DNA of 64,000 nt. It comes from Eledone cirrhosa (lineage: Eukaryota). Where the stretch lies: positions 26,412,001 through 26,476,000 of the forward strand of contig OZ024746.1 in NCBI GenBank assembly GCA_964016885.1. Reading direction: 5' to 3'. Made by a program: the position numbers and the translations under genes. Shown here one piece after another: positions 60,961 to 64,000 of this stretch; the stretch's first letter is position 1; each line of letters begins with the position of its first letter. The notes under the pieces are model-generated. The model saw nothing but the letters and a program-made list of their open reading frames with translations. It was not told the DNA's origin and did no database searches.

Positions 60961-62595
60961 AATATGGTTGGCCTTTATATTACGACCACATAACAGTATT
61001 AGACTTTGGGGTTCCCCAAAAGGTTTCTGAACCAAAAAGAGTTCCGCTTTTGAAAAAGGTTTGGGCAACCCTCCTATAGATCCTCCACCTCTTGCTGTCA
61101 GCTGATAGGATGGAGAACACACTGCCTCGGAGGACGGTGAGGGAGACATGCTGGAATAGCCACACCACATAGTGGGGCTTGCACTAGGGGACAGCTAACT
61201 ACGCTCCGATATCAGTGATCAGGGATGTGGTCTTGTTTTGTCAAGCAAGACAGAAGTCTCCAATGGTTGTTAATTGATGATGATGATGATAATTGATGAT
61301 GATGATGGTGATGAAGATGGTATGCTCTAACTATTCACCCAAATCCACCACTCCCTGGTCTGGCACTTGAGACAAAGTTGACAGTAGTGGAATTTTTACC
61401 AAGAGCACAAAGAGCTAGAACCGACACCAAGGTCGACTCCAGAGTAAACAATTATCATTTACTAAATAAAGAATATTTTTTAATATTCTTTATTTAGTAA
61501 ATGATAATTGTTTACTTTCAGTTATGTTTCAACATTTATGGAAACTGACATATATTTTACTATTACTATGACAGTGTGATGCTGTGTAGGAGGTCACATG
61601 TATTGTAACACTTCCGTCTTATGTTTCACAATGTAAGTGTGGAATATCCCAAGAATTGTGGTATTTTCTCAGCGGAAGTTATGGAATATGGAAAAGAAAA
61701 AAAAACAACAAAACAATACACAATAAATTAAACGCGAATTTCTTTATCAGAAGAAATTGAAAATATTACAATATGAAAAACACAAATCTTTTAACATAAA
61801 TAGCATTTACTTCTTAGCATCAAAATCTTTGTTGGAAGTTTTGGCACTGAGAGAAGCATAATATATATAAAACCAAGATTTGTGTTTGTGTGTGATTCTA
61901 AATGTTTTAAATGACACTTCTACGAAATAAATGTTTCCCATCAATGAAATAAAGTAAAATAGACTTTTGACCTAAAATTAAGATAATAGTGATTCATTGT
62001 TACACTTAACTACTCTCTCCTTCTCCCTCCACTCACACATCCTCCATCCTACATATTACTTTCACTCTCTCCCCCCTCCCCCTCTCCCCCTCTCTCACTT
62101 AACTTTCTCTTTTTTCTCTCACCATCCTCTCACTCCGTCCTTCTCTCCCTTTACTTTTATCTCTCCTACTAAAATTGGGATTATAAATAGATACGCCGGT
62201 CTCTACAACTGAAAGTAAATCTATTCTCATCCAAATAGTAAACTATGGATGTTGGGAACTTTCAAATTCTCCATCTTCAATATATATCAACGGTATTTCC
62301 AAATATATAAGTTTCATTGGTAAGTATATAAAGTCACATTATAATCTGAGCTCAAATCCCGCCGACGAGGTTAACTTTGCCTTTCATCCTTATGGGGTCG
62401 ATAAAATAAAGTACCAGTCACGCACTGAGGTCGATTTAATCGACTTTCCCCTCCCCCCAAATTACTGGCCTTGTGCCTATATAAGAAACCATTATAATTC
62501 TATTGACTATCATTTATTAATTGTATTCAAAAGAGTACAAGCAAATTTACTGACTTCTCACATTTATATTTCCTCTAACAAATTTATAAAATATC

Positions 62596-64000
62596 ATGTG
62601 TAAGTAGAATATTCTATGTTATAGTCACTGTAATATTGTTGTTTGAGTTGTCACACACGCAAACATACACACACATACACACACACACACACACACACAC
62701 ACTCAAACACACACACACACACACACACACACACACACACACACACACACACACACACACACACACACACACACACACACACACATATATATATATATAT
62801 ATATATATATATATATATATTTATTAAAATAACAGATTAAAGTTTAAGCAAAGAATCGCTGCTTTGTTTCTATTACTTCTGTATTGTATTTATTTACTTT
62901 GTTCTTAACTCTGTAGCGGAAATTCATTCGGTTTCCTAGTTAGAATTTTAGTTAGAACTTCTGCTATACCATTTACGTGGTTTTGTCTTTGCGTGCTATT
63001 GTTCTCCACGCTCCACATATGACTTATTATCTTCGTTTTTTCGTTCATTGTCAGAGAACGTCTCTATGCACCACTTAGAGAACATTAGTCTACGACCTCT
63101 TTTATACCATAAACGTGGTTCTGTCTTTGCGCGTAATTGTTTTTCACCGCTCCTATTAATGACGTATTATTCGTTTTTTCCCGTTCTTTGCCAGCGACCG
63201 TCACCATGAACCAACATATCGTCTTCCTGTCTTCCTCCGGTTGCAACGTTTTTTGAAATATCCAGTTCTGCGTTTACAGATTGACTTTGTTAGTTTCAGC
63301 AGATCCCGTTAAGGGTGAAAGCAGCGATTCTTTGCTTAAACTTTAATCTGTTATTTTAATAAATATTTGCTCTTCGGTTCTTATATATCTGATATATATT
63401 TTCCTTATCGAGCCCTCTTTGGATTTTAGTCTTCAATTTTATTATTATTACTATATATATATATATATATATATATATATATATATATATATATATATAT
63501 ATATATATATTTATCAGGTAAATGACCCATTCCCGACCAGTTATGTGATCGTGTACTTATTTAATTGTAAGATGTCTTTCTTCACATATTTTCCCATTTA
63601 TCCAATGATTATTCTTGAGTATCTTGTCTTACTTTTCTTTTAATTATTCTATTTTAACTATCTATGTGTGTTGTAGGAGAAATTTTCACAGTTGGGGAGG
63701 TGACATTCAGTGTTCTACAATCATGTAGTTGCTGCTAAATGAGAGTTTACAATATTCTTTGTTTATTTTTGTAGTACACTACAACCATACTATAGTCTAA
63801 TGCTCTCCATAATTGACCTTCTCGTCATCAATTTAGCTATTGATTATCTTGAAATTCATTATGAAATCTGTCTATAATTTATTTACACAGTGGGGTATGA
63901 TTTCGCGAAGATTTAGTTCCTGCTTCTGTGTAGAAATCCCCAATATTCCCAATTTAAATATTTATCACTAATCCAGAATGTAATTCTTCTCTTAAAATAT
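62596..64000 (+). CDS. 5' end (coding exon 1, ATGT 62596-62599, plus intron 1) of a tandem paralog of the cytokine-like gene; remaining exons expected beyond the window
   Basis: ATGT|gtaagtagaat is conserved exactly with 39546-39560, and intron similarity continues to the window edge. Confidence 0.6.
62821..63362 (+). mobile_element. Insertion with ~45-bp inverted ends in a microsatellite of paralog intron 1; shares its 3' part with 2000-2098
   Basis: ttattaaaataacagattaaagtttaagcaaagaatcgctgcttt is the reverse complement of 63318-63362; absent from the 39.6-39.9 kb copy. Confidence 0.55.

Follow-up and report, generated by a model that had tools for sequence, protein, structure and literature searches.

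A young array of some thirty near-identical genes in the octopod Eledone cirrhosa, likely encoding a secreted, predicted four-helix cytokine

IL-6-family cytokines and leptin are described, in a recent source, as identified only in jawed vertebrates (PMC12284397). A 2026 BLAST-based survey reports an IL6R-like receptor, JAK and STAT in molluscs, with no IL-6-like ligand, and names the Drosophila Unpaired proteins as protostome JAK/STAT ligands for Domeless (PMC13203501). A different cytokine class, the cystine-knot protein IL-17, is represented by 31 IL-17-like genes in an octopus, according to a paper citing Albertin 2015 (PMC10055819). Here we have analysed a 64,000-nucleotide stretch of the genome of the octopod Eledone cirrhosa (the window; C6:26412001-26476000, contig OZ024746.1, in a 3.0-Gb assembly) together with the next 400 kb. 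The window contains two copies, A (g01) and B (g02, at 61479-64000), of a five-exon gene, and these are the left edge of an array of about 30. Our preferred reading, which we hold with slightly better than even confidence, is that this is a young array whose product is a likely secreted, predicted long-chain four-helix cytokine of the IL-6/IL-11/LIF type, and that the array likely raises the dose of a gp130/Domeless-like, JAK/STAT ligand.

Extent and reality of the array

The array spans 397 kb, to C6:26849029, and comprises 30 complete five-exon copies together with a partial one that has exons 4-5 only. Genes g01 and g02 lie on the plus strand, the 27 genes g03-g29 on the minus strand, and g30, the last gene, again on the plus strand. 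Every complete copy has an open frame of 239-240 amino acids and GT-AG introns. Together they make up 27 distinct coding sequences and 19 distinct proteins, with only 23 of 240 protein columns variable; three other copies are 97-99% identical to g06. The array has no internal N gap, the sole one following g30, and genome searches with exons 2, 4 and 5, which give lower bounds, found no near-identical copies outside it. The units are 11-22 kb long, mostly about 12 kb, and 27 of them also carry a plus-strand relic gene, in which the last part of intron 1 and the first part of exon 2 are fused to the start of exon 5. Unit g08 (16.5 kb) has an extra 619-codon open reading frame (C6, about 26556847-26558703) that is not in the 12-kb unit g12, possibly a retroelement that was multiplied together with one subfamily of units.

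An initial annotation, made from the window alone, had proposed that copies A and B are real, diverged duplicates in a cytokine cluster, and the duplication itself was borne out. The two upstream blocks (Table 1) are identical at 553 of 598 positions (92%) in a self-comparison of the window, and four further blocks of copy B (62292-62345, 62490-62655, 63452-63682 and 63675-64000) align to 39390-40721, collinear and on the same strand, at an offset of about 22.7 kb. The recurrence includes the promoter, the TATA region, the motif ATGT followed by gtaagt (at 39546 and 62596) and intron 1. As had been claimed, the intron 1 insertions differ: copy B has an element with 49-bp inverted repeats, and copy A has a stretch of its own around 40103-40409, besides a short dispersed repeat at 40720-40907. 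Reading A and B as two haplotypes of one gene, or as an assembly overlap, was rejected, the copies lying on one contig with different flanks and insertions and 15 of 720 coding nucleotides different, and the intron stretch private to copy A having its own read contig. Exon 2 of copy B, which had been predicted to follow soon after the window end, starts 90 bases beyond it, and exons 3-5 follow intact. The cluster size was undercounted about fifteen-fold, the remaining copies not being visible from the window.

We have also checked whether the array could be two haplotypes stacked in one contig. Among units g03-g29 (the last in part; tandem repeats masked) there are on average 10.7 mismatches per kb (range 2.1-22.2), divergence shows no trend with distance (rho 0.06, P 0.24), and near-twin units are interleaved (g05/g13/g22/g28 and g12/g25). 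Since the near-twins interleave and divergence is independent of distance, with no colinear halves, stacked haplotypes are ruled out. In read run X1, a public run that is possibly the assembly's own sample and in which contig depth does not equal copy number, three contigs on shared parts of the unit have depths of 156-161 and two upstream contigs 130-143. The intron stretch found only in copy A has a read contig of its own (456 nt, zero differences) at a depth of 10.6, similar to the other low-depth contigs listed. With assembly 31-mer multiplicities of about 22-27 for the three shared parts in typical copies and 1 for the part unique to copy A, the X1 depth per assembled copy comes to 6.0-7.0. 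The high depth, falling yet short of the 30-copy expectation, indicates that the amplification is real but that 30 may exceed the diploid average, through a modest overcount or a shorter second haplotype. That the array is largely an assembly artefact, of stacked haplotypes or an over-expanded repeat, would find some ground in this shortfall, as 6.0-7.0 against a single-copy depth of 10.6 gives 17-20 copies. We consider this very improbable, because even the lowest estimate means many copies, a baseline of 7.5 gives 24-28, no two units are identical and the gap-free array has its near-twins interleaved. The depth check suggested in the initial annotation thus upholds many copies, with a rough estimate of 17-28 that stays under 30. 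A hint that a relative has amplified the gene too comes from run X5, of a different organism: a contig of exon 4, with 22 differences over 314 nt, reaches a depth of 147, and the other contigs listed 8-30.

Predicted fold and octopod relatives

The protein could not be placed by sequence. In seven full-length relatives and four exon translations, Pfam gave no match near its cut-offs, with PF00489, PF07400 and PF01291 unmatched at E up to 1 (0/7 and 0/4) and PF00103 (Hormone_1) without a match, and a sequence search of the PDB gave none at E up to 10. From an alignment of nine relatives and 19 exon rows of this genome, a model of the Argonauta protein P0007, which is 58% identical to the array protein, was obtained with pLDDT 83.5 and pTM 0.78, and has long helices at 28-63, 101-133, 157-179 and 205-231. 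When compared with 48,161 chains, its ranks 1-13 were all long-chain class I cytokines and its ranks 1-28 all helical cytokines, with the best non-cytokine chain at Z 7.4. The closest was IL-11 (Z 15.1, root-mean-square deviation 2.6, 153 residues aligned), followed by CLCF1 (14.6), IL-6 (14.4), LIF (14.4) and CNTF (13.9). Foldseek put the same families on top, and a poor first model from four sequences (pLDDT 49.7) gave the same kind of matches. The ESM Atlas neighbours of an O. sinensis relative were IL6, Hormone_1, IL12, GCSF and LIF_OSM clusters, at 0.90-0.92; in one Atlas cluster, of 114 eukaryotic proteins that are most commonly molluscan, the IL6 family accounts for 11%.

The gene structure points the same way as the model. 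Copy A has 240 codons in five coding exons with intron phases 1-0-0-0, the phases of IL-6, IL-11, G-CSF, growth hormone and prolactin genes, and the mapping of exons onto the fold (Table 1) is likewise that of the IL-6 and growth hormone genes. With four long helices in the predicted model, in the arrangement that, along with a core of 160-200 residues, characterises the class, the family is predicted to belong to the long-chain class I helical cytokines. A subfamily is not assignable, because the identity to the structural matches is only 9-16%. Some points weigh against the placement: it is made with no Pfam or PDB sequence support, the model is of the Argonauta protein and not of the array protein, helical bundles can reach a Z of about 13 by common arrangement and only eight rows exceed 13, and the best Foldseek E is only 0.087 for a good model.

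The same fold class also includes endocrine hormones, and the product might not be an immune cytokine but a growth hormone/prolactin-like signal that serves growth or reproduction. Prolactin is among the top Foldseek rows, placental lactogen reaches Z 12.6, Hormone_1 is found in 24% of the members of one Atlas cluster, and the intron phases of growth hormone and prolactin genes are alike. The best gp130-family match, though, lies 2.5 Z above placental lactogen and 5 above growth hormone, and at 9-16% identity the fold decides the subfamily neither way; we think an endocrine role quite improbable.

The first 20 residues are hydrophobic, a character kept across relatives, and the model has a low-confidence helix at 4-19, so that an N-terminal signal peptide is likely, judging from sequence. 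The mature part has five N-glycosylation sequons and six cysteines, four of which are invariant and lie in and beside the B-C connection. The exon 5 of the array copies has two acceptors 9 nt apart, and since the relatives align to the second, the protein, which had been given as 240 amino acids, may equally well be one of 237.

Three database searches returned octopod proteins only, from O. vulgaris, O. sinensis, O. bimaculoides and Argonauta hians, and no sequence match to arthropod proteins; a deep profile search of squid, cuttlefish and bivalves was not among them. All of the octopod relatives are named uncharacterised or hypothetical in the databases. In the Eledone genome itself, the genome-wide count suggested in the initial annotation adds eight more family members to the 30 complete copies and the partial one: four on C4, three at C6:12.42-12.45 Mb and one at C6:10.51 Mb. 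The C4 members are a second array (C4:128157000-128226999) of a 52%-identical paralogue, in units of about 20 kb that are about 98% identical; exons 2-5 are open in all four, the stop comes three codons earlier, and the first intron is about 5.3 kb in the first copy. At C6:12417000-12447200, two near-identical inverted paralogues stand beside the most divergent member, which is likely the orthologue of Argonauta P0015. Elsewhere, exon 4 is repeated in part at C19:9923656-9924857, where its first half alone stands in five tandem copies spaced by about 270 bp, and there is a broken exon-4 copy at C19:23872516-23872674.

A tree was built from 19 rows (four array copies, four other paralogues of this genome and 11 database proteins); not included were P0001 and P0010, which are long models, P0008 and P0009, which look like isoforms, and P0016. 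Two older lineages, common to other octopods, are recovered in it with support of 100/99 and 95/95; the second carries a long-branch flag. Separate clades are formed by the array, by three Argonauta copies and by five copies of the genus Octopus, and the tree does not settle their branching order; as far as these sequences go, duplications of the gene seem to recur by lineage. The O. vulgaris protein P0001 (368 amino acids) has repeated exon-4 blocks and looks like a fused model of tandem copies, and P0010 (O. vulgaris, 335 amino acids) may be a similar fusion; the annotation may understate the size of the O. vulgaris cluster.

Evolution, expression and dosage of the copies

Among 29 copies (g01 left out) the coding sequences differ on average by 5.5 of 720 nt, and the selection check proposed in the initial annotation gives a mean pS of 0.0176 and a mean pN of 0.0050. 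Of the coding variants, 13 of 31 are synonymous, compared with 21% expected (P 0.007 against neutrality), and the sole coding indel, in 723 coding columns, is in frame, compared with 14 indel events in the 526 columns 3' of the stop. Diversifying selection was looked for and is not seen overall among the copies. In exon 5, 8.5 of the 11 differences between g01 and g02 are nonsynonymous, about neutral per site, and they fall in the predicted C-D loop. The four-gamete test is failed by 31 of the 120 informative site pairs, which argues for recombination among the copies. Genes g27 and g01, 350 kb apart and on opposite strands, share a short exon-5 tract, which fits conversion or a retained older state.

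This combination of near-identity, recombination and purifying selection leads us to read the locus as a young homogenised amplification of one gene. Its many near-identical, recombining units place it with the homogenised tandem multigene arrays and not with diverged paralogue clusters of the upd type, the older paralogues, at 37-53% identity, lying elsewhere on C4 and C6. Thus a lineage-specific array with a cytokine-type product, as initially annotated, holds, but the likeness drawn there to Drosophila upd1-3 or to a diverged vertebrate cluster does not, the copies being about 99% identical. The history of the array may have started with an inverted duplication that gave a tail-to-tail pair, still visible as g02/g03; a deletion would then have gutted the plus-strand partner to leave the relic, the relic-plus-gene unit of about 12 kb would have been multiplied by unequal crossing-over, and the units would have been kept alike by conversion. 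The g02-g03 spacer is 95.5% identical over 3.0 kb to the relic-gene spacer of unit g12. Copy B was also considered as the intact ancestor of the relics, which its sequence does not support, its intron 1 being about 94.5% identical to that of intact genes and about 92% to relics; it matches the relic by position only.

Whether selection has acted on the copy number is a separate question. The number could be nearly neutral, the outcome of unequal crossing-over at a rearrangement-prone locus, for a cytokine that works alike at one or thirty copies. Such a locus is indeed suggested by the inversions, the hairpin breakpoint, the gutted relic in 27 units and the partial copy, by the second young array on C4, and by read depths that hint at copy number differing between haplotypes, and the absence of nonsense changes falls short of significance. 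It is, however, harder to reconcile with the synonymous excess within the array, because of which we believe that selection acts on the copies collectively, or with the contrast between coding and 3' indels and the recurrence of duplicates in separate octopod species. We regard a neutral copy number as unlikely.

A motif that reads both as TATA-like and as a splice donor (Table 1) is present in all 30 array copies as well as in the C4 and C6:12.4 Mb paralogues. An initiator-like sequence 31-35 nt downstream of the TATA-like run fits the TATA reading, as initially annotated, but the motif is equally a perfect splice-donor match and either is possible. Because run X4 covers 38761-39375 (depth 8.5) and not 39426-39667, and the donor-like GTAAGT ahead of the TATA-like run is conserved, an untranslated first exon with a short intron, instead of a TATA box, is a possibility; the covered stretch could represent either a long untranslated exon or a transcript of its own. 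In copy B, the repeat at 62346-62489 is inserted shortly after the motif, and its tail gives a second TATA-like run that is, by our own count, equally far from the downstream sequence, a tail variant seen in one of 19 matches to the repeat-tail motif in the region, and an AG six bases 5' of the ATG, present in the 29 other copies, is lost. Copy A or copy B could be atypically regulated. A STAT-like site is found in 28 of the 30 copies, with about 0.3 sites expected by chance on a rough estimate.

Run X4 is not on record as RNA and its tissue is not recorded. A 775-nt contig from it joins exons 2, 3 and 4 at the predicted junctions, and two bins wholly inside intron 2 have zero depth. Junctions 2-3 and 3-4 are therefore seen spliced in reads, and 1-2 and 4-5 are not; the exon 1-2 junction is placed by homology, the paralogues having a 10-nt coding first exon and the annotated octopus proteins starting alike. 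The restriction-site (RAD-seq) run X7 barely covers the gene.

In the preferred reading, the product would be secreted and act as a ligand for a gp130/Domeless-like receptor that signals through JAK/STAT, and the array would raise ligand output in proportion to copy number. The signal might be an inducible one for immunity or tissue repair, dosage being our best guess. The receptor-ligand role is proposed because of the fold, the gene structure and the reported molluscan IL6R, JAK and STAT, and the raised output because of the homogeneity with purifying selection. JAK-STAT pathway transcripts are reported as enriched in the white body of female Octopus maya (PMC6522055). Our search of the Eledone genome for receptors and STAT (PF09240, PF06328, PF25552 and PF02864) gave nothing usable, and its controls were equally silent, which makes it uninformative.

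A number of results pull the other way. Intron 3 shows the same degree of conservation as the exons' coding sequence (9 of 166 versus 31 of 723 variable sites), and zero nonsense changes are unremarkable for 31 variants (P 0.21), so that youth explains much of the intactness. The X1 depth amounts to only 17-20 copies on the baseline of 10.6, or 24-28 on that of the lowest other contig listed (7.5). The spliced X4 contig has a depth of only 5.2, and kappaB-like motifs upstream are not above chance compared with shuffles (P 0.17). Signalling cytokines, moreover, normally act at very low concentration, and thirty copies are not obviously needed.

Alternatively, the cytokine fold may have been co-opted for bulk secretion, in saliva, skin mucus or an egg or sperm coat, with copy number selected for output and not for signalling. 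Near-identical copies under purifying selection are the typical high-output pattern, the five sequons and six cysteines suit extracellular life, and several octopods have duplicates of their own. On the other hand, both the fold and the gene structure are of the receptor-ligand type, no result ties the gene to a gland, and the only spliced contig, from a tissue not recorded, is of low depth. We judge bulk secretion to be about as unlikely as a neutral copy number, if not a shade more so, and keep the dosage of a receptor ligand as the preferred reading.

Table 1. Features of copies A and B (window coordinates, except where C6 is given)
Feature	Coordinates	Strand	Remarks
Copy A (g01) upstream block	38794-39384	+	Homologous to 61479-62071
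Donor/TATA motif, copy A	39415-39429	+	130 nt before ATG
Copy A exon 1, coding part	39546-39549	+	ATG and one base, then phase-1 intron
Copy A exon 2	41017-41201	+	Likely signal peptide, then predicted helix A; joined to exon 3 in the spliced X4 contig
Copy A exon 3	41524-41658	+	Predicted A-B loop
Copy A exon 4	41825-42055	+	Predicted helices B and C; four invariant cysteines
Copy A exon 5	42542-42709	+	Predicted C-D loop and helix D; second acceptor at 42551
Perfect 35-bp hairpin, 4-nt loop	61443-61516		Arms 61443-61477 and 61482-61516; left end of copy B homology
Copy B (g02) upstream block	61479-62071	+	
Proximal upstream segment	62072-62291	+	Retained in copy B and array, deleted in copy A; motifs common to distant paralogues
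Donor/TATA motif, copy B	62319-62333	+	
Short dispersed repeat	62346-62489	+	Flanked by a 9-bp target duplication (62337, 62490)
Copy B exon 1, coding part	62596-62599	+	
Copy B intron 1	62600-64000	+	1490 nt; extends 89 nt beyond window
Element with perfect 49-bp terminal inverted repeats	62817-63366		In copy B intron 1; repeats 62817-62865 and 63318-63366
Copy B exons 2-5	C6:26476090-26476274, 26476598-26476732, 26476899-26477129, 26477457-26477624	+	Open frame

The two edge copies differ from the rest of the array in several respects. Relative to the other copies, copy A is without about 220 bp of proximal upstream sequence, deleted after its upstream block, and its intron 4 is 486 nt long compared with 256-327 nt in the other 29 copies, for which reason it probably has an insertion of its own. 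The hairpin of copy B is missing from all 27 other copies that have the same upstream block, and copy B appears to be a 5'-truncated edge copy, the hairpin at the breakpoint looking like a fold-back breakpoint. Among eight copies aligned, only copy B has the dispersed repeat at 62346-62489, which we take to be SINE-like; the element in its intron 1 is presumably MITE-like. Directly upstream of copy B is a 48-bp minisatellite of about 2.1 kb (58872-60962), with related sequence at 106-194. Long open reading frames of 977, 174, 295 and 381 codons lie between copies A and B on the minus strand (45510-50960), and resemble a LINE retrotransposon; there are further fragments at 51653-52995 and 32825-34470.

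Comparison with known systems

More broadly, the octopod family may be the ligand class so far missing for IL6R/gp130-like receptors of molluscs, with octopods repeatedly amplifying one such cytokine into interferon-like arrays under dose selection, a proposal that we make tentatively and hold at somewhat less than even confidence. If it is true, the IL-6-type fold and the 1-0-0-0 gene structure are older than the protostome-deuterostome split. A database-uncharacterised family that cannot be placed by sequence, yet has the predicted fold and exon layout of such a cytokine, is a concrete candidate ligand for the cephalopod receptors, and about 30 near-identical copies of a likely ligand, with separate duplications in other octopods, make it possible to test directly whether cytokine dose is under selection. 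The novelty is tempered by insect Unpaired and by the molluscan-dominated Atlas cluster with its IL6 members. No paper on the family or on six of its locus tags was found in open-licence PMC and bioRxiv texts, supplements left out, and expression tables in supplements could already list these octopus loci. Helical cytokines are probably not wholly unreported in molluscs: an oyster IL-12p35-like protein has reportedly been described.

The IL-6/gp130 family (IL-11, IL-6, LIF, CNTF, CLCF1, OSM and IL-27 p28) is the closest in structure, with Z 12.7-15.1 over 138-165 residues, and shares the five coding exons in phases 1-0-0-0, in which helix A, the loop, helices B and C, and helix D are spread over exons 2-5. 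The octopod protein differs from it in its 10-16% identity with no Pfam or PDB sequence match, and in the four invariant cysteines in and beside the B-C connection; the vertebrate members are mostly single-copy. The growth hormone/prolactin family has the same fold class and scores below the gp130 ligands (Z 9.9-12.6); an amphioxus growth hormone-like protein has reportedly been found (PMC5376476). In the rodent prolactin family and the primate GH-CSH locus a class I cytokine gene has likewise been expanded in tandem, but the rodent prolactin paralogues have diverged, whereas the octopod array copies are about 99% identical. Drosophila Unpaired 1-3 are three diverged clustered genes, in contrast to 30 near-identical copies here. 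The IL-17 genes of octopus are a cytokine family of similar size, with a cystine-knot fold where the protein described here is predicted to be all-helical. The mammalian interferon-alpha cluster resembles the array in being a homogenised, gene-converted tandem cluster of a helical cytokine, although the mammalian type I interferons are intronless class II cytokines, and type I interferons match the octopod model at a lower Z of 8.5-10.1.

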